From an uncultured Gammaproteobacteria bacterium (GTDB taxonomy: Bacteria; Patescibacteriota; Microgenomatia; 2-02-FULL-39-11): 64,000 nucleotides of DNA. The DNA is taken from NCBI GenBank assembly GCA_964354025.1, contig CAYGXQ010000001.1:70567-134566 (forward strand), read 5' to 3'. The notes below the pieces were generated by a model that did not search any database, was not told the origin of the DNA, and saw nothing but the letters and a program-made list of their open reading frames with translations. Both the position numbers and the translations under genes were made by a program. This document shows positions 2,219 to 56,391 of the stretch, one piece after another. Numbering within the stretch: the stretch's first letter is position 1; every line of letters starts with the position of its first letter.

Positions 2219-3310
2219 CTATCCAACTTCAACTTCCAAGTCCGGACGGGCCTGAATTTCTCTCCAGAGTACCGGGTGGTTGTGGAAATAAGCGTAACTG
2301 GCGATATAGCTGGCGTTGTCAGTGCAAAGGGAAGGAGGAGGAATATATAAATCAATTTTTAATTTTAAATTTTCAATTTTTAATTTGAACTTTTCCGTTA
2401 ACCGTTTATTAGCAGCGACACCGCCACCGAGGAGAATGGATTTCACCCGATATTTTTCGGCGGCTTTCAGGGTTTTATCCACGAGGACGTCAGTAATCGC
2501 TTCCTGGATTTCGTAAGATAGTTGTTGAATGGTGTAAGAATTAAGTTTCTTAAGTGCCTTAAGTTTATTTACTTCTCTTAAAACCGCGGTCTTCAGTCCG
2601 GAAAAGGAAAAATCAAAATTATCTTCATGCATCATCGGTCGGGGAAGTTTCACAATGTCATGCTGAACTCGTCCTGATTTAATCGGGATAAATTCAGGAT
2701 GATCATTACAGAACTTTGCAGCAGCATCTGCAATAGCTGGTCCACCGGGGTATCCAAGTCCCAAAAGTCTGGCAGTTTTGTCAAAAGTTTCTCCGGCCGC
2801 ATCATCGCGGGTCCCGCCGAGCCATATAATATCCCGGTGATTTTTCATCAAAAATAATTCCGTGTGTCCGCCGGAGACAACCAAAGCGATGGCTGGAAAA
2901 GAAGGAGGTTTTTCGACATCAAGCCAGTTGGCGTAAAGATGGGCCAGGACATGGTTGACCGGAATAATCGGTTTACCGGTAAGATAAACGATGGTTTTGG
3001 CTGTTTCTACGCCGACTAAAAGCGAACCGATTAAACCCGGTCCAATGGTTACTGCGATGGCGTCGATTTTTTCAATTGTTGCATTGTTGCATTGCTTGCC
3101 CTGAGCGGAGTCGAAGGGTTTCATTGTTTCATTTATTACGGGTATCATACACTTCACCTGTTCCCGGGCGGCCACTTCCGGAATAATCCCGCCGGTTTTC
3201 GTATGCAGGTCTTTTGAAGAGGAAACCACGTTGGAGAGAATTTTGACACCGTCCTCCACCAAAGCCGCAGCGGTTTCGTCACATGATGTTTCAATGCCTA
3301 AAATAATCAT
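2219..3310 (-). CDS. tsaD: tRNA N6-adenosine threonylcarbamoyltransferase TsaD (Kae1/YgjD family)
   Basis: MIILGIETSCDETAAAL..., AIAVTIGPGLIGSLLVG, VSGGHTELF. Start taken at internal Met (ATG 3308-3310) rather than the long ORF start that overlaps the upstream gene. Contains an in-frame repeat-derived insertion PFDSAQGKQ. Confidence 0.85.
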   Translation of the reverse strand: MIILGIETSCDETAAALVEDGVKILSNVVSSSKDLHTKTGGIIPEVAAREQVKCMIPVINETMKPFDSAQGKQCNNATIEKIDAIAVTIGPGLIGSLLVGVETAKTIVYLTGKPIIPVNHVLAHLYANWLDVEKPPSFPAIALVVSGGHTELFLMKNHRDIIWLGGTRDDAAGETFDKTARLLGLGYPGGPAIADAAAKFCNDHPEFIPIKSGRVQHDIVKLPRPMMHEDNFDFSFSGLKTAVLREVNKLKALKKLNSYTIQQLSYEIQEAITDVLVDKTLKAAEKYRVKSILLGGGVAANKRLTEKFKLKIENLKLKIDLYIPPPSLCTDNASYIASYAYFHNHPVLWREIQARPDLEVEVG

Positions 3311-13896: not shown

Positions 13897-14933
13897 TTGG
13901 ACAATTCTTTCTCATCCGGCAGTTTTCTGATCAGATTTACCCAAAAGATAAATCCCACAATAATGACCATCACCAATATCGTTACGAATACTTTCTGTTT
14001 CGAATTTAACATCAAAGCAAAGATGCCGAAAGCGGCGGTGATGAGCCAATAAAAAACGGCAATTTTTCGCTTCCCCCAACCCAACCGCAGCAGGTGATGA
14101 TGAAGGTGTTCCCGGGTGGCCCGAACCGGTGATTTATGGCTGACAATTCTTTTAAATAACATAAAAACGGCATCAGTCATCGGCATGGCCAAGACTAAAA
14201 GAGCCGTTCCTAATTTGCTGAAAGCCATAATGGAAAGGATAGCCAGTAAAAACCCGGCAAGAGTTTTGCCTCCGTATCCGGGCATAATTTTTTGCGGATA
14301 ATAATTCCACGGCAAAAAACCAAGGAAAGCGCCAGCGGTGAGAAAAGAAAGGACAAGAACCGGCAGTTGTTGCGGATCCAAAAGAGCGAAGCGCAGGGAC
14401 AAGAGTCCGATAATGACTGCCGCAATCGAGACAAAGCCGGGCAGTTGTCCGTCAACTCCTCCGGACCAGCCGATGATATTAGTCGTCCAGATGATCCAGA
14501 TGAAAGCAAGCAGATTTCCCGCCCCGGGAGAAAGCGGGAGGATACCGCCGAAAGGATTAGTGATGTAAGGGATAGTGACGCCGGATGAGACAACGATGAC
14601 AGCGGCCAGGCAGTTGGTAAAAAAGCGAAGATAAGGAGAGCGGTCTTTTCTGTCATCCCAAAGACCGACGGCAATCAAAATGACAGAGGCGATGAAGATG
14701 CCGATGATCTGTTTCATCTGCGGATATAGCAAAACCAGCGGCCAAAAGATGCCGATAAAAATGGCCAGGCCGCCGGCGCGCGGAATTATTCCCTGATGGG
14801 TGTGGGCGGGATGGGGACGGATTTTGGGATTATCTACCAGTTGGAAACGGAGGGCGATTTTTATCACATAAGGAGTAATCAGATAGGTGATGATGGCCGA
14901 AGTGATGATAGACCAGAGAATTAAAAATAGCAT
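13893..14933 (-). CDS. family 4 glycosyltransferase, polyprenyl-phosphate N-acetylhexosamine-1-phosphate transferase (MraY/WecA family)
   Basis: About ten TM segments; GLWDDRKD, NIIGWSGGVDGQ and HLHHHL motifs typical of MraY/WecA-type enzymes. Confidence 0.65.
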   Translation of the reverse strand: MLFLILWSIITSAIITYLITPYVIKIALRFQLVDNPKIRPHPAHTHQGIIPRAGGLAIFIGIFWPLVLLYPQMKQIIGIFIASVILIAVGLWDDRKDRSPYLRFFTNCLAAVIVVSSGVTIPYITNPFGGILPLSPGAGNLLAFIWIIWTTNIIGWSGGVDGQLPGFVSIAAVIIGLLSLRFALLDPQQLPVLVLSFLTAGAFLGFLPWNYYPQKIMPGYGGKTLAGFLLAILSIMAFSKLGTALLVLAMPMTDAVFMLFKRIVSHKSPVRATREHLHHHLLRLGWGKRKIAVFYWLITAAFGIFALMLNSKQKVFVTILVMVIIVGFIFWVNLIRKLPDEKELSN

Positions 14934-42387: not shown

Positions 42388-42756
42388 TAATAATAGTATA
42401 TAATATATTTTTTCGCTTCTTCAGAGCGTAAAAAAGTATTTTCTCTGTTTTCGTCCTGCCTTCAGTTTATTGAAGGAATGGACTCATCAGTACCGATTCC
42501 ATCGGTAAAACAGAGAAATTCAGATGGTAAAGGTTATGGTAGGAAGGTAATCCCGAAAAGGGATACAAATTAGAACCTAAGGTTCTAAAACCCCTTCCGG
42601 AAAATACCCAGACACCATAAACCAGCAAGAAAGGCTCATGCAGACAAAGCCGCACAATTTCTCGATATCCAATCGGATACCGATCATGCCTTTCTGCTCC
42701 CTCTGAATTCTCTTGAAGAAAAGATCGATTAGTCAAGGCCGCCAAGCCTTTGACTT

Positions 42757-43578: not shown

Positions 43579-45336
43579 TTAGTGGCCTGGGGCCGCTGGG
43601 CGAACCGGCATGGGTTGCGTTGGTCCGGGAACAGTGGGGGTGACGGCGGCGCTCGCCGTGACGCCCGTTGCCTGGATCGTGAAGGGCCCGTACAGATTGT
43701 TTTCTTGCTGGCCCAAAATTTCATGCCTTTCGAGCTCGCCATTATACCAGTTGACCCGGTCGTCTGTATCGACCCGATAGTAGCCAATGCCGGAAAGGTT
43801 CGGATCAACGTTCGAGTAGTAGACCCAATAGTTGCAACCCTGTGACTCACTGGCCACAGTGCTGCATGTGATAGTCTCACCCGGTTTGAGTGAGACTGTG
43901 GTGCCGTTTGGCCACCAGTTGCTAAAAGCCACACCCCGACCAGTCCAGCGGGACCCATCCCAACCAGGGGAAAGATCTTGCCAGAAATCTCCGGGGCCGG
44001 GGACGCGAGGCGGGTTGACATACCCGTCAATCCACCATGAGCCAGTTGTCGGCGCCGTTCCGATGTTAGCAATAATGACCATTGCGTAATTGTTTCTAAT
44101 GGTGCCGGATACCACAACTAGGTCTGGGGCGTAAAGGAAATCGCGTTGTATGACTGGTAGGTACGTTCGGCAGGCGTCCATGCGGACTTGAGCCGCATCC
44201 ATAGCGCTCACGTTTTGTCCGTTTGCCCGGCCGGTGCTCGTGACGGTGTTAGTGAAACTTGCCGTTACGTTGGTCGTGCAGATATAGCCGTTGCTTGCGC
44301 CGACTACTAGCGTCCCGATGGAGCGACTGCAGGTTCCGACCGTGCCCGTCACCGTCACGTTAGACAGATCCAGGTCCCCTGTGTTAGTGACTGCGATAGT
44401 GAAAGTTGCGGATCGGTTGTAGCAGACGGTTTTGTTTTCCGGTTCGATGGTGATGGCGATTGCTGCGGTTTTGATCGTGAACATCGCCGTGACAACCTTG
44501 TTTGCCGTCATCATGACCGTCGTCGGGTTGGCCGTACCCGTGATTGCGCCGGTCCAATTGACGAACGTCGAGGTTATACTCGGCGACGCTGTCAACGTGA
44601 CGACCGTACCAGCCTGGTAGCTGGTCTGGTCCGGATTCTTCGTCACCGTGCCCTGGCCGACTACGTTGGTCGTCAGTTGGTAATTGCAGATGACCGAAAT
44701 CATCTCTTGGACGAGCTGGTCGAGCTCATCTGGCGACGAGGCATTTCCCCAGCTTCCATCGCCAGCCTCGGCGATTTCAGCCAGATAGCCTTCACGGGTC
44801 GAGTCGAGATCCACACCAATGGCGAAGACCCTGAGCCCCGCGAGTTGTGGATCGGCCTGTGCAACCTCGATCGCGGAAACTAGTTGATTGGTTTGAGTAA
44901 TGGTGATTTCCGCATCCGTTACCAACAGCACAACCGGGTCTTCTGCTCCGAGGAGCTGGTTCTTGGCCATAACGAAGGCAGGCACGATCTCTGTGCCGCC
45001 GTTGGCCGTTAGCGCGTTGACCGCGGCGATGACGTCCGTATAGACAGGAGTCAAGGCCAGGTCTACCCGAGGCGTGTCAGCGAAGCTAACCACCCCTTGG
45101 CGGGACCCGGGATTGCTGACTTGCGGTGTTACATGGGCGACCGCACCCTTCAACGCGTCCAGCCGGGTGCCGGAGCCGAAAGCGGTCCCCATCGAGCCCG
45201 ATCGGTCGAGTTGGTACATCAAGTTGACCGTCCGCGAGCAACCCAGCGTCATCGCTTGGTTCGTGATGAAACCAAGCGTCAATAAGGTGGCCAAAAAAAC
45301 CAGGCCCAAAACTTGCGCGAGTCTTCCGCGTTTCAT
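43579..45336 (-). CDS. secreted von Willebrand factor A (VWA) domain protein with C-terminal beta-rich repeats, high-GC
   Basis: Signal peptide; MIDAS DRSGSMG; T...D pattern; Thr/Val/Asn-rich Ig-like repeats; GC about 57%. Confidence 0.65.
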   Translation of the reverse strand: MKRGRLAQVLGLVFLATLLTLGFITNQAMTLGCSRTVNLMYQLDRSGSMGTAFGSGTRLDALKGAVAHVTPQVSNPGSRQGVVSFADTPRVDLALTPVYTDVIAAVNALTANGGTEIVPAFVMAKNQLLGAEDPVVLLVTDAEITITQTNQLVSAIEVAQADPQLAGLRVFAIGVDLDSTREGYLAEIAEAGDGSWGNASSPDELDQLVQEMISVICNYQLTTNVVGQGTVTKNPDQTSYQAGTVVTLTASPSITSTFVNWTGAITGTANPTTVMMTANKVVTAMFTIKTAAIAITIEPENKTVCYNRSATFTIAVTNTGDLDLSNVTVTGTVGTCSRSIGTLVVGASNGYICTTNVTASFTNTVTSTGRANGQNVSAMDAAQVRMDACRTYLPVIQRDFLYAPDLVVVSGTIRNNYAMVIIANIGTAPTTGSWWIDGYVNPPRVPGPGDFWQDLSPGWDGSRWTGRGVAFSNWWPNGTTVSLKPGETITCSTVASESQGCNYWVYYSNVDPNLSGIGYYRVDTDDRVNWYNGELERHEILGQQENNLYGPFTIQATGVTASAAVTPTVPGPTQPMPVRPAAPGH

Positions 45337-45639: not shown

Positions 45640-46224
45640 CTCCATCTATTACTTCAACGTCAATCGGTATGGGCATTGCTTTAGGTCTTTTAATTATTGC
45701 CTTTTTACTCTTCTGGAATACCTTCTACAAAAAAACCAGTAAGTAGCAGGTTGATTTTATCTTCAATACCAGCAGGGTAGAACTGACTCAAAAGTCCGCC
45801 TACGCATGAAGCTTCGGCGAGACAAGGGAGGAAAATACCCCTAATAATAAGATTATTACCCCAGTACCAGTCCTGATTTAACCTGAGGACGGTACGGGGT
45901 TGCGACTCCGTTTATTAATGGCGGAGTCTTACCCAAGGAAGCTTGTTAAAGAGCCCCTCGCTTCGCTCGGGGTAAACCCTTCTATTTGACTTAGGCTACC
46001 CTGAACTAAGCGAAGAAAGCCGTTATTAGTTGTCCAAATTTCAGTAATCAGAAGCAAATATCTGAACTTGAAAAAGACAACTTCAAACTTCTTCAGTTTG
46101 CATGCGGATTAATTAACCTATAGTTAAATATCCACAGCCGTTGTATTTATACAACTTTCTATGACAAAATCTTGATCATAAGAGGAGAAAAAGTATCAAA
46201 AATAGGGGATTTTTGACAAAATAC

Positions 46225-46253
46225 TTGACAAACTGTTTAAATTATAGGATAAT
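46225..46253 (+). promoter_or_regulatory. sigma70-like promoter (TTGACA-17-GATAAT) 8 nt upstream of the ATPase-wHTH gene
   Basis: ttgaca 46225-46230, gataat 46248-46253; a second TTGACA at 46213; essentially leaderless start at 46262. Confidence 0.5.
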
Positions 46254-46261
46254 ATCTCAAC

Positions 46262-47539
46262 ATGGATACGAACCAACAGATCCAAAATCAGTACTTCAAT
46301 TTTTATCGGGATAATCTGGAAAAGACAGCCCAAGCGATTCAAAAAGGCAAAGTGTTAATTTTTGTGGGGATGAATTCGATCGGCAAAACTTTGCTGATCA
46401 ACCAGATAACTTCTTCCAGATTCAAGCAGGAATACCTGTCAAATCAAAAAGTACAGACAGTATTTTTGGAATATAAAGACAAGAATCCGCCCACCCCGGC
46501 TCAACTTTATAAATATTGGCTTACCGAAACAGCTAAGATTCGGGGATATAATTTGCCTTTGAATGAAGAATTTAATGACTATTCTTTTTACTATCACCTG
46601 ACGGAAATGACCAAGAATTTAGGGGAAGAGAAACTGGTCTATATTCTCCAAGACACCCAAAAATTGCTTGACCAGGGAGAAGCTTTTTTTCGCAGTCTGA
46701 TCTACCTCCACCGCTTCACTTACGGAAAAGTTTCCTATCTGGTCTTTTCCGAACCGCAAATCCTGGATTGCAAAAACACCTGGGTACAAAGATTTGTGCA
46801 AGACCTTACCAACCATAAATTTATTTTTCTTAAATTATTGGATAAAGCCACGACAATTACTGACATTCAAAGGGAAGAACAGTTCCTGAAAGCTGATCTT
46901 AAACACAGATGGCCTTTGGTGATCAAGTATTCAGGCGGGCTGCATGGAGTAATCGGCGCCCTTTGTTATTTTTTGAAAAAATTTCCGGAAGTGAAAGATA
47001 TCAGACAACTGCGGAAAATTGTCGAAGATGACAAAATGTGTGAGTATTGGTTTAAGGATATTTTTGACAGTCTTCCGCTTGAGTCACTTCGAATTTTAAA
47101 AGAAGTAGTCATGCATAAAGATAACTGGAAAAAATACAACAGGGAGATTTTTGGGGAATACCTGGTCAATTTAGGATTTTTGAAAAATGACGGCACTTTC
47201 CGTCATCCACTGATGCTTTTGTCCCTCAAAAAATACGTGATAGGAGAAAGAAAAAACATCCAGGAACTTACATTGGTTAAAAATGCATTTTTTCTAAACG
47301 GTGCTAAAATAAAATTAACCAAAAGAGAGTTTGCGGTTTTACAGGTTTTGCATAAAAATAAGGGTAAGACGGTGACGACTGACCAGTTAGCCGAAGCTTT
47401 ATGGAAAGACAATCCGGAGGCATTCTCTCTTTGGGCGATCGCGCAGACAGTCCGGCGCTTGAGAAAAAAACTGGCTTTTTATTTTATCCCCCCTCAAACC
47501 ATTAAAAGCATCAGGGGAGAAGGGTATATGATGAGCTAA
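46262..47539 (+). CDS. P-loop ATPase with C-terminal OmpR/PhoB-type winged-helix DNA-binding domain
   Basis: Walker A VGMNSIGKT, Walker B-like VYILQD, C-terminal LTKREFAVLQVLHKNKGKTVTTDQLAEALW...VRRLRKKL...IKSIRGEGY (trans_reg_C pattern). Confidence 0.6.
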   Translation: MDTNQQIQNQYFNFYRDNLEKTAQAIQKGKVLIFVGMNSIGKTLLINQITSSRFKQEYLSNQKVQTVFLEYKDKNPPTPAQLYKYWLTETAKIRGYNLPLNEEFNDYSFYYHLTEMTKNLGEEKLVYILQDTQKLLDQGEAFFRSLIYLHRFTYGKVSYLVFSEPQILDCKNTWVQRFVQDLTNHKFIFLKLLDKATTITDIQREEQFLKADLKHRWPLVIKYSGGLHGVIGALCYFLKKFPEVKDIRQLRKIVEDDKMCEYWFKDIFDSLPLESLRILKEVVMHKDNWKKYNREIFGEYLVNLGFLKNDGTFRHPLMLLSLKKYVIGERKNIQELTLVKNAFFLNGAKIKLTKREFAVLQVLHKNKGKTVTTDQLAEALWKDNPEAFSLWAIAQTVRRLRKKLAFYFIPPQTIKSIRGEGYMMS

Positions 47540-47540
47540 T

Positions 47541-49856
47541 ATGATAGGAGAAACACCAACTGTTTTACCATCTATGTGGGCAAGAATAAGACAAAGACAG
47601 GCAGAAGCAAATGAATTGCAGGGGGATGCCAGAGTAGGAGCGCAAATAACTATTGATAGCTTAACGAGACGTATGCCCAATTTGCCGGAAGAAAAAAAAC
47701 AACTATGTATAGATTATCATCGTGTAGCCGAACCGGTTCTTACTGATTTGCGATGGGCGCCACGTATTACGACGAGAGATGATCTATTCAATACTTTTTT
47801 AAGAAGACGTATCGATGCCTGTCTTGATAATGGGGAAGATCGGGTATATATAGAGATGGCTTTTGGACAACTTAAGTCTTATATAGAACAGACACGCAAT
47901 GAAGTCGTTGATTTCCTTGAGGGATTAGTTCATAAAATGACTGCTACTAAAAATGCGGAAATGGTAGTGATAAATAATGAGGAGGTAAGTTTCAGCGAAA
48001 CCTTTTTAAGAGATTATTTGAGAGATTTTTTTAACAAGTATCCTTTGCAATGGAATGATAGTCAGGTTGATTTAAAGGATAGAATTTCGGCAGTCATGTA
48101 CGCCATCGATGATAATACCAAAGCCAAAGAGGGTGAACGTTATCTCCCGATTATTAAAGTAGGACAAAGGTTTGAGTTTGATATCCCAGAGGAATTCCAA
48201 TATGTTTTGGCCTTAAAAATTCTTGAACAAACTGATTTGACGGATGAAAGAACATCTCCACTATTATATACAAAATATATTAACTGGGATTTCTCGTCAG
48301 AAGCAGTCTTGGCAAAATTGGATGCGGTAAATTGTTTCAAGAATGGGAGATATAAGGATTTCCGTTTTTTATTATCAGCGATAGGAGAAATTATTTATGA
48401 TGATAGGAGTTATAGAGCGACGTTGATCGATTTTCTGACCGGAGTGACAGAAAGGATTGGAGGGAGAGATCCAGTCGAGATGCGCAAAGGATTTGCTTTT
48501 GCCAGAACAATTTTAGATGATTTTGCCAAGTATTACGTTAAGGACAGTAGGGAATCTATAGAATACAGGTTTTTGGAACAGACAAGAGAAGCATTGAACC
48601 AGCGCGAAAGAGAATATTTTTATCCAGACAGAAAACCGGTTGTTCCGGCTGATGTTATGGAGCAAGCGGTTTCGGCTATGGAAAGGAGAGGACCGTCTGC
48701 GATGAATGAAGCCATCTGGTTGGGAATGGTGCCGGAAGGATCAGTGGGAGCGCTTTTCCCGCCGGAGATGAGAGAGCAGATAGAACTAATAATCCAATAC
48801 GCTTTGAAACGGCGGAAAGCGGAAGCAGCAATCATTCCTGGGACTGCTGATGTTTATGGAGCAGATAGTGAGGAAGCGATTTGGATAATGAAACTAAAAC
48901 AGGCTTTTATTGGAGCAATGTTCGCTAAGGATGACGGATATGATATTCATCTACGAAGAGACAATGAGCCGACTTTGCAGGTAACAGAAGGTCCGACTGA
49001 TGCCTCCGAACGGGCGCTATTGATGATTCTGAATGTTATTAACGAAATAGTTAAGATAAAAGCTACAGATAACAGACTAGCTTTAGGTGTTTCTGAAATG
49101 ATGACTGCTGTTTATTATGGTGACGTGGCGAGTAGAAGTCTTTGTTGGGACAAAGAGAGAAAAAGATATGTCTGGGAAAATCCGAAATTTCTCGAACAGT
49201 ATGAGAAAGCAGAACGGGCAATTGCCGGTATTTTTGCCTGGTATCCGCTTTACGCTGGCGAAGTAACTGGATTTCCCGAATCAGGCGCTTTATGGGCTGA
49301 GGCTAACCGTGACTATGGCTATTTGATCTTAGTGGCGAATGATATGGAGGATATCTTGATAAGAGGAAAATATAAGAAACATGAGATGGGTAATGATATC
49401 GGTCAGAAGCCCTCTATTTACCAATGGCTTTTCATGCATCTTGAATTACCGGAAGATGATTCTTTATCTGCTTCCCTGGTTGCTGATCAAGAAATTGTCC
49501 GGAAAGCTTATGATGATATCGGCCGCAAAAGACACGCCGGAGAAAAACTAAACGATGTTGATTATCAGCAAATTGCTCAAGCTTGTGAAGCTCTAACGAA
49601 ATATGCACCAAGAATTATTCCCCAGATGCAAATCATGCTAGAACCGTTTTACACCAGAGCAAGAGAGTCTTTAGCTGAAGCATTTAAAAAATTGCCTTCG
49701 ATGGATAGACGGAATACCACTCAGCAGATAATTTTTGAAAATATGATTGATGGAGTCTGGCAGAAGATCTGCGGATTTTCTGGAAGCGGGGAAGAAGCAG
49801 CTATTGAACAATTATTTCAAGTAAGAGAAAAAGTAAAAGAGGAAGTTCTAGAGTAA
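47541..49856 (+). CDS. large soluble protein of unknown function, translationally coupled to the ATPase-wHTH gene
   Basis: 771 aa uninterrupted ORF starting 1 nt after the upstream TAA; no TM or recognisable motif. Confidence 0.5.
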   Translation: MIGETPTVLPSMWARIRQRQAEANELQGDARVGAQITIDSLTRRMPNLPEEKKQLCIDYHRVAEPVLTDLRWAPRITTRDDLFNTFLRRRIDACLDNGEDRVYIEMAFGQLKSYIEQTRNEVVDFLEGLVHKMTATKNAEMVVINNEEVSFSETFLRDYLRDFFNKYPLQWNDSQVDLKDRISAVMYAIDDNTKAKEGERYLPIIKVGQRFEFDIPEEFQYVLALKILEQTDLTDERTSPLLYTKYINWDFSSEAVLAKLDAVNCFKNGRYKDFRFLLSAIGEIIYDDRSYRATLIDFLTGVTERIGGRDPVEMRKGFAFARTILDDFAKYYVKDSRESIEYRFLEQTREALNQREREYFYPDRKPVVPADVMEQAVSAMERRGPSAMNEAIWLGMVPEGSVGALFPPEMREQIELIIQYALKRRKAEAAIIPGTADVYGADSEEAIWIMKLKQAFIGAMFAKDDGYDIHLRRDNEPTLQVTEGPTDASERALLMILNVINEIVKIKATDNRLALGVSEMMTAVYYGDVASRSLCWDKERKRYVWENPKFLEQYEKAERAIAGIFAWYPLYAGEVTGFPESGALWAEANRDYGYLILVANDMEDILIRGKYKKHEMGNDIGQKPSIYQWLFMHLELPEDDSLSASLVADQEIVRKAYDDIGRKRHAGEKLNDVDYQQIAQACEALTKYAPRIIPQMQIMLEPFYTRARESLAEAFKKLPSMDRRNTTQQIIFENMIDGVWQKICGFSGSGEEAAIEQLFQVREKVKEEVLE

Positions 49857-49970: not shown

Positions 49971-50026
49971 GAAGATCCCTCAACGAAGTTTATCCTGAGC
50001 GAAGTCGAAGGGTTCGGGATGACAGA
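49971..50026. repeat. family-1 structured repeat, half copy
   Basis: ggaagatccctcaacgaagtttatcctgagcgaagtcgaagggttcgggatgacag; contains the same 22-mer found in frame in tsaD and in the helicase. Confidence 0.65.
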
Positions 50027-54891: not shown

Positions 54892-56238
54892 TTATAACAA
54901 ATAATATGCCGGAATATACTTTATCATGATATTATCTGTCATTTTCTCTTTATAAATATCTCTGGTAACTAAAATCGCACTGTTTAACTTTTCCTGCCGG
55001 CAGAAATATAATAAATTTTTCAGGTCTTCCCGCCTGATCTGTTTCTGGTATTTTACTTCAATCGGGACTAATCCCTGATTTGTCTTCCAAATAAAATCTA
55101 TTTCCTGACCGGCACGTTTCCGCCAGAAATATACTTCTCCGCTTTGTTGGAATAAGTAATTAGCGACAAAACTTTCCGCCAATATACTTTCACTTGGAGC
55201 CCAGCTTGCCTCTTGTATTCCTGAGGCGGATTGCAGCGCCGATAAATTAACTGACGAGGGATAAATTTTTCTTTGCCGGACATTTCTGGTTCGAAATCCC
55301 ATTTTCCAGTTAAACAATTGTTTTACCAGCAAAGTTTTTTCCAACAAATCAATATAGTGCGACAGAGTATTTTTAGCCAGCTGCAAATCAGCAGACAAAT
55401 TTACCAGTTCTATCAGTTGTCCGGGTTTTTCTGTCAGTATCCGGGTCAAATTGACCAGTTCCGCTTCTCTGACCACCCGCAAATATTTGGGAATGTCCTG
55501 CTCCACCACTTTACCAATCACCCAGCTTCTTAAATACTCCTGCTTGTCTTTCCAGGCATCTAATTTTAGAAGATATGGAAATTCGCCCCAGGCTAAATAT
55601 TGTTTAAACAACTGTTCAATTTCCCATTCCGGTCTTTCAAAACTAATATTGGCAAATGGAGCAGTTTTGGTAAATTTTACCCCATGCTGTATACGTAAAA
55701 ACTCTCCAAAACCAAAAGGCCGCATGATAGTTTCTGATATCCTGCCGGCTAAACTTTCCCTGGCCTTGGTTTTAATAAATAGACTGGAAGAACCGCTGAT
55801 AATAAATTTAATTTGCGGATATAAATCGGTGAATTTTTTTAATATCGCGTTCCAATAGTCAACATACTGAATTTCATCGAAGAAAAAATAAAGCTTCCCT
55901 TTAGGATATTTATCTATCCGCATCTGGATAGTTTTTTCTAAAAATTTGGGTTCTTGGGCCAGCACAAACTCTTCGAAGGAAAAATAAAGGATTGTTTGTT
56001 TGTCTATGTCATGATGCAATAAATCAGCAATTACCTGTTTTATTAAGGTAGTTTTTCCTACCCGGCGCATTCCTATAATCGCGGTAATCAGATCTGACTC
56101 AGTAATTTTATTTTTCAGCATTTGATAAATTTCCCGCTTTGGTTTTTTTGCTTCTTCGATTTCCACCCCTTTATCCGCCCACCAGGGATTTTGCTTTATC
56201 AGTTCATTTGCGATTAATTTGTTATCAATATTGATCAT
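54892..56238 (-). CDS. AAA_14-type ATPase with DUF4143-like C-terminal domain
   Basis: NPWW start motif, Walker A GMRRVGKTTL, Walker B LYFFFDEIQYV. Start moved to MINIDNK (cat at 56236-56238). Confidence 0.65.
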   Translation of the reverse strand: MINIDNKLIANELIKQNPWWADKGVEIEEAKKPKREIYQMLKNKITESDLITAIIGMRRVGKTTLIKQVIADLLHHDIDKQTILYFSFEEFVLAQEPKFLEKTIQMRIDKYPKGKLYFFFDEIQYVDYWNAILKKFTDLYPQIKFIISGSSSLFIKTKARESLAGRISETIMRPFGFGEFLRIQHGVKFTKTAPFANISFERPEWEIEQLFKQYLAWGEFPYLLKLDAWKDKQEYLRSWVIGKVVEQDIPKYLRVVREAELVNLTRILTEKPGQLIELVNLSADLQLAKNTLSHYIDLLEKTLLVKQLFNWKMGFRTRNVRQRKIYPSSVNLSALQSASGIQEASWAPSESILAESFVANYLFQQSGEVYFWRKRAGQEIDFIWKTNQGLVPIEVKYQKQIRREDLKNLLYFCRQEKLNSAILVTRDIYKEKMTDNIMIKYIPAYYLL

Positions 56239-56391
56239 AAATGTCACATTAACGATCAATATCGTATCATGATTAACCGTAAATGTCAAATTGAGGATAA
56301 AGAAAGAATTATTCAGTTTTTTATTAATGGATGCGGTCTTTATTGATTTGGGTTGTGATGACAAGATTTAAAGCTTGGGAATTTGTTGGTA

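Follow-up and report, generated by a model that had tools for sequence, protein, structure and literature searches.

A conserved gene pair of Microgenomates bacteria encodes a P-loop/winged-helix protein and a highly diverged protein of the trans-prenyltransferase fold

Introduction

Two adjacent genes of the window (the whole 64-kb stretch of DNA analyzed here), gene A (46262–47539; 425 aa, stop codon TAA at 47537–47539) and gene B (47541–49856; 771 aa), raise the question of what a protein with a P-loop NTPase-like N-terminus and a C-terminal OmpR/PhoB-type winged helix (wHTH) does together with a large partner, in which the initial annotation could place no motif. That annotation called the pair an orphan operon and suggested an NTP-driven regulator, possibly of a defense or stress module. 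All features described below lie on the plus strand.

A and B form a conserved two-gene module

Both ORFs were confirmed in the ORF list of the window exactly at the coordinates claimed earlier, and the ATG of B lies 1 nt past the stop of A, so that the proposed tight coupling to a large partner was borne out. Because homologs were found for both proteins and the pair was syntenic in every other locus examined, A and B are real genes rather than chance ORFs. Wherever the sequence downstream of A was readable, a B homolog began within −4 to +6 nt after it. With at least 12 distinct loci, the pair is a conserved module of two genes, and the term orphan no longer applies.

Loci encoding A homologs and an exhaustive HMMER search supplied the members of the B family. 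The A and B families comprise ~26 and ~32 clusters, respectively, mostly from MAGs of Gottesman- and Woesebacteria, and the pair has so far been found almost only in Microgenomates (CPR) bacteria, B being annotated everywhere as "hypothetical protein." Mean identity was 28% for B vs. 49% for A, indicating that B diverges about twice as fast, and the divergences of the two proteins were correlated. One MAG carried three copies of the pair, which resides at variable chromosomal sites, for example between rpsG and fusA in Woesebacteria. A second P-loop/wHTH pair, in locus L009, was considered as a relative and rejected, as it resembles A in the wHTH alone and has a partner unlike B.

A combines a P-loop region with a C-terminal OmpR-type winged helix

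The N-terminal region of A (about residues 1–200) is P-loop NTPase-like and is followed by a helical middle region. Its Walker A motif, GMNSIGKT (residues 36–43; 46367–46390), was identified by motif and conservation; G36, G41, and K42 were invariant in 21 homologs, while residue 43 was T in 17 and N in 4 of them. The Walker-B-like strand, LVYILQD131-T-Q133, contains D131, invariant in the 21 homologs, and Q133, which was near-invariant in them and invariant in a 12-member subset. Hence both motifs by which STAND/AAA+ proteins are recognized, G36xxxxGK42[T/N] and hhhhD131, are present in A, but the lack of a second acidic residue after D131 makes its hydrolysis competence uncertain.

All NTPase models remained sub-threshold on the A family, namely AAA_14 in 9 of 12 members (best, 7.6e-5), AAA_22, nSTAND3 (21 bits; cut-off, 27.2), and NPHP3_N (1.5e-4). 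The matches of a PDB profile search with A were confined to the Walker A region of ABC ATPases, and hhalign against the window's own AAA_14-DUF4143 ATPase aligned the P-loop alone. An ABC-type identity was rejected on inspection because of the wrong motif order. The P-loop motifs and the sub-threshold family matches thus only suggest that A is an NTPase.

The C-terminal residues 348–424 (47303–47533; recognition helix FSLWAIAQTVRRLRKKL) matched Pfam Trans_reg_C (PF00486) at E = 8.8e-17, with 61.4 bits vs. a cut-off of 26.2, and PDB response-regulator DNA-binding domains matched the same segment with E down to 1.4e-9. Within it, W381, S389, L390, W391, R399, G421, and Y422 were invariant. No Response_reg match was obtained for A in the Pfam search, NCBIfam response-regulator models aligned with only their C-terminal ~90 positions, far below cut-off, and the receiver with a phospho-acceptor Asp that characterizes two-component response regulators of the OmpR family was not found. 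These results upheld the unusual architecture proposed earlier, a P-loop with a C-terminal OmpR-type wHTH and no receiver.

Similar to A, SARP/AfsR-type regulators carry an OmpR-type wHTH and a P-loop NTPase in one polypeptide. However, SARPs start with the wHTH and continue with a BTA domain, to which large SARPs add NB-ARC and TPR domains, whereas A begins with no such wHTH–BTA unit and has its wHTH at the opposite end, as initially annotated. Neither a BTAD nor repeats were matched in A in the Pfam search, and the AfsR and EmbR PDB chains matched A only at E of about 0.05–0.09, over the wHTH. The MalT/LAL-type STAND regulators have, as in A, an N-terminal P-loop NTPase module and a C-terminal DNA-binding domain, the latter being a LuxR-type HTH separated from the NTPase by a large sensor repeat region. 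In contrast, A has only 425 aa, an OmpR-type wHTH, and no sensor region. A defines a new regulator architecture, P-loop plus C-terminal OmpR wHTH, which dispenses with receiver, BTA, and sensor repeats.

The C-terminal half of B has a trans-isoprenyl diphosphate synthase fold

Direct searches of Pfam, NCBIfam, PADLOC, and PHROGs with B stayed empty at E ≤ 0.001, PDB sequences did not match it either, and a word-indexed homolog search, with the single sequence or with an 11-sequence profile, recovered B itself only. The single-sequence AF2 model of B had a pLDDT of 40. The C-terminal domain (residues about 400–745; 48738–49775) was nevertheless recognized as a complete trans-isoprenyl diphosphate synthase (trans-IPPS; all-alpha prenyltransferase) fold, superposable on solved members of the superfamily, with long-chain synthases (solanesyl, nonaprenyl, and decaprenyl) as its best structural matches. 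It is virtually certain that this half of B (~345 residues) has the IPPS fold in a very diverged form, and with its recognizable Asp-rich motifs it replaces the earlier statement that B holds no motif to place. The "hypothetical protein" family B is now placed in the trans-prenyltransferase superfamily.

The N-terminal domain (residues 1 to about 395; 47541–48725) is helical with two beta-hairpins in a confident AF2 model, and its invariant residues are E283 (24/26), G317, Y361, and R364. A search for its relatives gave no PDB profile match and no significant viral structure match. That it might be a duplicate of the IPPS domain was also considered, and the comparison gave no sign of duplication.

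In the C-terminal domain, the region DDGYDIHLRRDNEPT (residues 464–478; 48930–48974) aligned to the first Asp-rich motif (FARM) of solved synthases, ...DDxxDxxxxRRGxPT. The window B retains DDxx(xx)D followed by RRG as D464-D-G-Y-D468...R472-R473, and among 26 family members D464 was conserved in 26, D468 in 25, R473 in 24, and T478 in 20, while position 465 was D in 10 and N in 10. The region NDMEDILIRGKYKKHEMGNDIGQKPS (residues 600–625; 49338–49415) aligned to the second motif (SARM) and its loop, QxxDDxxD...GxDxxxGKxT. Here B has N600-D601-x-x-D604, a pseudo-second motif in which the first residue was Asn in 20/26 and Asp in 1/26 members; D601 (23/26), D604 (21/26), G617 (23/26), and D619 (25/26) were also conserved. 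The "KT" region was replaced by (S/A)W(F/Y)P, and the "GQ" region was replaced as well. PF00348 (polyprenyl_synt) gave no match to the window B, and no canonical IPPS motif was found elsewhere in the window.

These features were compared with those of the canonical trans-prenyl diphosphate synthases (FPP, GGPP, octa-, nona-, deca-, and solanesyl-PP; PF00348), since B might be an ordinary chain-elongating polyprenyl diphosphate synthase, making a lipid-carrier or quinone side chain, with A as its pathway-specific regulator. The whole trans-IPPS fold, the long-chain synthases as best structural matches, the canonical DDxxD first motif of the window B, the retained K426 and R473, and the mevalonate pathway in Microgenomates are in line with such a role. 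However, canonical synthases have Asp where B has the first Asn of the second motif, the "KT" and "GQ" regions are replaced in B, the window B gives no PF00348 signal, and the exhaustive HMMER search over 1.84 billion representatives retrieved only B-like proteins and no canonical synthase. Further, the 395-aa extra domain, the 28% mean identity, up to three copies, the variable sites, and the obligatory linkage to A are untypical of a housekeeping synthase, and we regard this role of B as improbable. The initial annotation had named, as evidence against its own reading, a confident homology of B to a housekeeping enzyme family with conserved synteny. The homology to a housekeeping enzyme superfamily was indeed found, but B is fast-evolving and lineage-restricted, has altered motifs, and is syntenic only with A, at differing sites.

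The motif signature of B resembles that of ComQ-type prenyltransferases

To our knowledge, acceptor prenylation in bacteria is known from very few systems (ComQ and Ord1/XiaM). ComQ and StheQ, the peptide tryptophan prenyltransferases of ComQXPA quorum sensing, are like B in their diverged trans-IPPS all-alpha fold with the first Asp-rich motif kept and a pseudo-second motif starting with Asn, which is N-D-x-x-D in StheQ and likewise in B, and in being coupled to a transcription-regulatory circuit. B shows the FARM and the pseudo-SARM starting with N-D of ComQ-type enzymes, as a pattern match to their description only (bioRxiv 10.64898/2026.08.29.745113). However, ComQ-type enzymes have one domain and about 300 aa, whereas B has ~395 further residues in its N-terminal domain. 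Downstream of comQ lie a gene for a small peptide with Trp and a histidine kinase/response regulator pair, whereas the regulator of the A–B pair is a P-loop/wHTH protein encoded upstream. No comX-like small conserved ORF was found within 400–450 nt of the pair in 9 loci. Ord1/XiaM are all-alpha-helical indole prenyltransferases of Streptomyces; unlike B, Ord1 is single-domain and lies in a natural-product gene cluster, and its pseudo-SARM is D-D-x-x-A vs. N-D-x-x-D in B, so this motif is not uniform among acceptor-prenylating enzymes.

The signature of B thus points away from chain elongation and toward acceptor prenylation, and from the N-D-x-x-D shared with ComQ/StheQ we infer a prenyl transfer to an acceptor other than IPP. 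B is rather likely to be catalytically active on a prenyl diphosphate, while its use of a non-IPP acceptor is a tentative proposal, somewhat short of even odds. B probably represents a new type of prenyl-transferring enzyme rather than an orphan protein.

The replacement of "KT" and "GQ" could also mean lost catalysis. In another reading, B would be a non-enzymatic ligand sensor or co-regulator acting in trans, which would bind an isoprenoid diphosphate or another ligand and switch the nucleotide state and DNA binding of A. A repeat or sensor domain is usual in STAND/LAL-type regulators (MalT, AfsR), whereas A ends directly in its wHTH; the translational coupling and correlated divergences of A and B would also fit. 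Non-catalytic IPPS-fold subunits were present among the structural matches of B, namely 5xn6 (a GGPPS-recruiting protein complex), 3qkc (a GPPS small subunit), and 9kp1_A (heptaprenyl synthase component 1). However, such subunits have usually lost the metal- and diphosphate-binding residues, whereas the B family keeps its Asp, Arg, and Lys at these positions almost without exception, and a pure sensor role appears unlikely.

A conserved tandem repeat overlaps the promoter of A

The initial annotation had proposed a search for a DNA-binding site in the operon's own promoter, and a conserved site was found there. A tandem direct repeat, TTGACAAAATACTTGACA (46213–46230), reads TTGACA-N6-TTGACA with a 12-nt period and is preceded by a T-tract. 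Its downstream copy is the −35 hexamer of the A promoter, a sigma-70-type element (TTGACA, 17 nt, GATAAT; 46225–46253) that agrees with the consensus at 11 of 12 positions. Around the −10, a TATAGGATAAT box (46243–46253) was kept across most loci and had no second exact copy elsewhere in the window. The −10 ends 8 nt before the A ATG, so that the mRNA would be nearly leaderless. Neither the 620 nt preceding A nor the stretch behind B gave an Rfam match.

The TTGACA repeat was found upstream of A in 12/12 distinct loci having upstream sequence, although in a degenerate form (TTGACG/TTGACT) in L025. It occurs exactly once in the window and once per fetched locus, always at the A promoter position. 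Its absence elsewhere in the window and its conservation over the −35 make it a reasonably good candidate for the operator of the A wHTH. The period (12 nt, and 11 in one locus) is slightly greater than the usual 10–11, and the upstream copy, which itself matches the −35 consensus, might belong to the promoter rather than to an operator. The binding sites of SARPs are likewise tandem direct repeats over the −35, spaced by roughly one turn of the helix (PMC10936776). Their promoters have poor −35 elements, in contrast to the perfect TTGACA within the A–B repeat.

A proposed regulator/prenyltransferase module

Taken as a whole, we favor the reading that A–B is a self-contained, probably autoregulated regulator/prenyltransferase module of Microgenomates, with a rough probability of 0.45. 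A would be a transcription factor that binds nucleotides with its AAA+/STAND-like P-loop and, through the OmpR-type winged helix behind it, the tandem repeat over its own −35, as a head-to-tail dimer or oligomer. Its binding would set the expression of the translationally coupled A–B transcript; with a promoter already so close to consensus, A would more simply act as a repressor. B would be a two-domain enzyme, whose C-terminal IPPS fold binds an allylic prenyl diphosphate via Mg2+ at the first Asp-rich motif, while the novel N-terminal domain may recognize the acceptor or contact A.

The pair might also represent a previously unrecognized kind of regulatory module, in which a STAND-like wHTH regulator lacking a sensor and a protein of the IPPS fold work as one unit; we consider this a long shot, in two versions taken together. 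In the first, B would be the trans-acting sensor of A, forming a split STAND switch responsive to isoprenoid diphosphates. In the second, B would prenylate a macromolecule, be it a protein, a peptide whose gene lies elsewhere, or A, and would recognize it through the novel 395-aa domain; if true, CPR episymbionts would possess a prenylation-based signaling or conflict system with regulatory wiring unrelated to ComQXPA. CPR bacteria are a large share of bacterial diversity, and for the majority of the proteins specific to their lineages, neither fold nor function has been assigned. The conserved candidate operator makes the DNA binding of A, its nucleotide dependence, and its link to B testable in vitro without culturing.

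Genomic neighborhood and the defense question

The accessory location described initially was confirmed, as MNT/HEPN and HTH_3/Gp49 TA-like pairs and a VWA gene of 51–56% GC lie upstream in the window, and the pair occupies different chromosomal sites elsewhere. TA modules were also the commonest neighbors across loci (PIN ×4, MazE ×4, BrnT/A, HEPN/MNT, and Gp49/HTH), and the PADLOC candidate PDC-S01 was nearby in 2 of 11 loci. Together with the varying location, including the rpsG–fusA insertion, the three copies in one MAG, and the fast evolution of B, they would suit an anti-phage or conflict module, in which A would detect infection and B, as the effector, would use up or divert prenyl diphosphates or alter a component of the phage. 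However, the PADLOC-DB v2 protein models gave only sub-threshold, P-loop-level matches for A (best E = 4.8e-4) and none for B (best, 2.5e-3 over 34 residues), no canonical defense system was found among 92 neighboring proteins, and the scan of IMG/VR viral contigs turned up no relative of A. CPR genomes are in general very rich in TA modules, so the association of these with A–B is weak, and ordinary regulators typically show such a combination of wHTH and conserved operator. A conflict role is therefore very improbable; for the defense or stress module suggested earlier, the TA neighbors, multiple copies, and fast evolution stand as circumstantial signs, while the family matches and viral occurrence did not follow.

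The repeat near 49971 noted initially does exist, as a GC-rich element at 49994–50012, but it is dispersed in the window in 5–9 copies and is not a boundary of the A–B operon. For the same reason, a flanking GC-rich inverted repeat (about 45954–45998 and 49988–50014) was rejected as a terminal repeat of a cassette, the element being dispersed across the window.

Conservation of the A–B gene pair

The regulator gene A (46262–47539, + strand; 425 aa, stop TAA) and its partner gene B (47541–49856, + strand; 771 aa), with the ATG of B one nucleotide past the TAA of A, were found exactly where the initial annotation had placed two ORFs. That annotation called them an "orphan" operon, a label which has to be dropped, as 26 cluster-level homologs of A (~422 aa, 46–62% identity) were retrieved, the named ones from Gottesmanbacteria and Woesebacteria. 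In the loci obtained via exact look-up plus genome and metagenome scans, wherever downstream sequence was readable the A homolog had, −4 to +6 nt past its end, an ORF of 392–771 aa that matches no Pfam family and is homologous to B (23–27% identity; E = 5e-7 to 4e-43); the copy in the Woesebacteria locus L004 was apparently disrupted. When 1.84 billion representatives were searched exhaustively with HMMER, 32 relatives emerged; the full-length significant ones were B-like, with no canonical enzyme among them, and all named family members are annotated as "hypothetical" or "uncharacterized". Among nine complete pairs, pairwise identity averaged 49% in A and 28% in B, a divergence of B roughly twice that of A, and the two sets of identities were correlated (r = 0.70), indicating that A and B travel and diverge together.

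Three A–B copies were present on three contigs (L008, L012, and L013) of the Candidatus Gottesmanbacteria RIFCSPHIGHO2_02_FULL_39_14 MAG. The MAGs carrying loci L009 and L011/L026 are labelled "uncultured Gammaproteobacteria" and "Bathyarchaeia archaeon", respectively. Since L009 has a hisS–EamA flank in common with CPR loci, and both share the sigma-70-type promoter layout of the other loci, these labels probably reflect errors of binning or annotation.

A is a predicted nucleotide-binding winged-helix regulator

The C-terminal OmpR-type wHTH described initially was confirmed by a Trans_reg_C match at residues 348–424 (E = 8.8e-17; 61.4 bits vs. a Pfam cut-off of 26.2), and no receiver domain was found, response-regulator models aligning via the C-terminal DNA-binding part only. 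The recognition helix, FSLWAI(S/A)Q..RRLRKKL, was nearly invariant among homologs. The assignment as a P-loop ATPase is supported at the motif level. A carries a Walker A motif (GMNSIGKT) in its N-terminus and a Walker-B-like strand (LVYILQD131-T-Q), with G36, G41, K42, and D131 invariant and Q133 nearly so in 21 homologs, but all NTPase family matches (AAA_14, AAA_22, nSTAND3, and NPHP3_N) were sub-threshold. Four of the 21 homologs carry Asn at position 43 in place of Thr, and D131 is not followed by an acidic residue. A is thus likely to bind nucleotide, with hydrolysis uncertain.

A second, divergent pair was found at L009:1657–4480 (− strand), 1.5 kb upstream of the A–B pair. It encodes a P-loop protein of 420 aa (NPHP3_N, 2.5e-4; KAP_NTPase; C-terminal Trans_reg_C, 1.3e-11), whose detectable relation to A is confined to the wHTH, and, after a 1-nt gap, a 519-aa protein that had no matches and is not B-like. 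This suggests that a P-loop protein with a C-terminal OmpR wHTH and a large partner is a broader theme.

A conserved tandem repeat overlaps the promoter of A

A DNA-site search in the operon's own promoter revealed a near-consensus TTGACA-17-GATAAT, ending 8 nt before the ATG, whose −35 hexamer is the second copy in a tandem direct repeat, TTTTTGACAAAATACTTGACA. The upstream layout, a T-tract followed by TTGACA-N6-TTGACA, was identical in all 12 distinct loci aligned, with a spacing of N5 in one and a degenerate TTGACG/TTGACT repeat in another; in most of them TATAGGATAAT lies ~14 nt beyond the repeat. With one mismatch allowed, the repeat occurred exactly once in the 64-kb window, and it occurred exactly once per fetched locus (10–17 kb), always upstream of A. 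A duplicated promoter was rejected as an explanation, as inspection of the aligned upstream regions found no conserved −10 partner for the upstream copy.

PhoB recognises direct repeats that overlap the −35 element and are spaced by about one helical turn. The same mode is documented for OmpR-type domains including SARPs (PMC10936776). Based on this binding habit and the nearly invariant recognition helix, the repeat is a candidate operator of A. Repression is the simpler reading, given that the promoter is already near-consensus, although A could also activate.

Upstream, a 67-aa membrane ORF is separated from the promoter by ~570 non-coding nucleotides (window 45640–46210), which contain a terminator-like hairpin (45894–45911) and a degenerate REP copy and had no Rfam match.

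B contains a predicted trans-prenyl diphosphate synthase domain

B, initially described as lacking any placeable motif, had no matches in Pfam, NCBIfam, PADLOC, PHROGs, or PDB sequences. Polyprenyl-synthase-like strings were spotted by eye and afterwards tested independently. An 11-protein B profile matched solved trans-prenyl diphosphate synthases over nearly the whole enzyme (GGPP synthase 1wy0, E = 4.9e-7; E. coli octaprenyl-PP synthase, E = 1.5e-5). In the alignment, the first Asp-rich motif corresponds to D-N-x-x-D...R-K-G-x-x-T in B, the second to N-D-x-E-D, and the conserved loop after it to G-x-D-x-G...T. Five of the 11 members individually matched Pfam polyprenyl_synt (best E = 3.5e-6), and the AF2 model built on a 26-sequence family alignment was confident (mean pLDDT 83.8, pTM 0.79). 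Together, profiles and model place a complete trans-IPPS domain at residues about 400–745. Residues 1 to ~395 were confidently modelled as a separate helical domain with two beta-hairpins; it had no sequence-profile match and, on comparison, is not a divergent duplicate of the C-terminal domain.

Column identity in the B family averages 26%, but the positions that bind ligand hardly vary: K426 of region I (23/26), D464 (26/26), D468 (25/26), R473 (24/26), D601 (23/26), D604 (21/26), G617 (23/26), and D619 (25/26). Such conservation favors a functional diphosphate/metal site, so that a non-catalytic B sensing in trans for A, consistent as that would be with the coupling of the two genes, appears unlikely. 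The synthase matches would also suit a plain elongating synthase with A as its dedicated regulator, a reading we consider quite improbable, as B departs systematically from such enzymes in three respects: Asn opens the second motif in 20/26 members and Asp in 1/26, (S/A)W(F/Y)P stands in place of the "KT" region, and "GD" in place of "GQ". Its N-D-x-x-D is closer to the acceptor-prenylating than to the elongating branch, a pattern-level resemblance and not proof. Prenyl substrate supply is plausible, as mevalonate-pathway enzymes are present in most Microgenomates (PMC6107057). No comX-like small ORF was found conserved near the pair.

The reading we favor, at a probability of roughly 45%, is an autoregulated module in which A, as a nucleotide-binding wHTH regulator, would act on the tandem repeat at its own promoter, and B would be a two-domain prenyltransferase-fold enzyme, ComQ-like but much larger. 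As both proteins are composed of known folds, the module does not amount to a categorically new system; what appears undescribed is the architecture of the regulator, the N-terminal domain of B, and their obligate pairing, and a literature search for comparable systems found nothing relevant.

Genomic context of the pair

In the window, A–B is preceded by LytR_cpsA_psr, an MNT/HEPN pair, an HTH_3/Gp49 pair, and a VWA gene of 51–56% GC, and followed by a convergent fn3/Big_13 surface protein, PilO-like pilus genes, S20, MurJ, and an AAA_14-DUF4143 ATPase. Among 92 flanking proteins from 11 loci, the recurrent families were PIN and MazE, with four occurrences each, and housekeeping genes (hisS–EamA in three loci; rpsL/rpsG/fusA/tuf; L31/RF1; SUF). 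In Woesebacteria (L001–L004, L014, L020–L023), the pair sits between rpsG and fusA of an otherwise conserved rpoBC-rpsL-rpsG-fusA-tuf cluster, accompanied in L001-type loci by a BrnT/BrnA TA pair and a 290-aa gene of no assigned function.

The location of the pair is thus variable and accessory-like, in line with the accessory context initially described. Evidence for the suggested defence role is circumstantial. PADLOC detected no canonical system among the flanking proteins; apart from generic matches, it found just one candidate family, PDC-S01, in two loci. The PDC-S01 matches are AAA_14-DUF4143 ATPases (window 54892–56364, − strand, and L010:10091–11266; E = 1e-57 and 1.5e-142), both within 5 kb of A–B (2 of 11 loci), and no A relatives were found on IMG/VR viral contigs. 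We therefore regard a conflict or defence module as very doubtful; the initial observation is confirmed and its interpretation partly supported.

Window segment 43000–45400 (51–56% GC vs. 44% for the window), encoding a 585-aa VWA and InlB-B-repeat protein (43579–45336, − strand), looks horizontally acquired. A dispersed GC-rich REP-like element, CCTGAGCGAAGTCGAAGGG, lies at 49994–50012 and at 3100, 18137, 24245, and 56412 (five copies at ≤3 mismatches vs. 0.01 expected; nine by a looser pattern), with degenerate copies near 14384, 22032, 32535, and 45954; copies flanking A–B were rejected as cassette ends, being members of a genome-wide dispersed family. Finally, a candidate type III hammerhead ribozyme (42443–42515, − strand) lies between a 154-aa ORF and a Gp49/HigB-like toxin gene on the same strand; it scored 29 bits against Rfam RF00008 (gathering score 48.5; E = 2.7e-4 in a 401-nt search), with the core CUGAUGAG...CGAAA and stems I–III intact.
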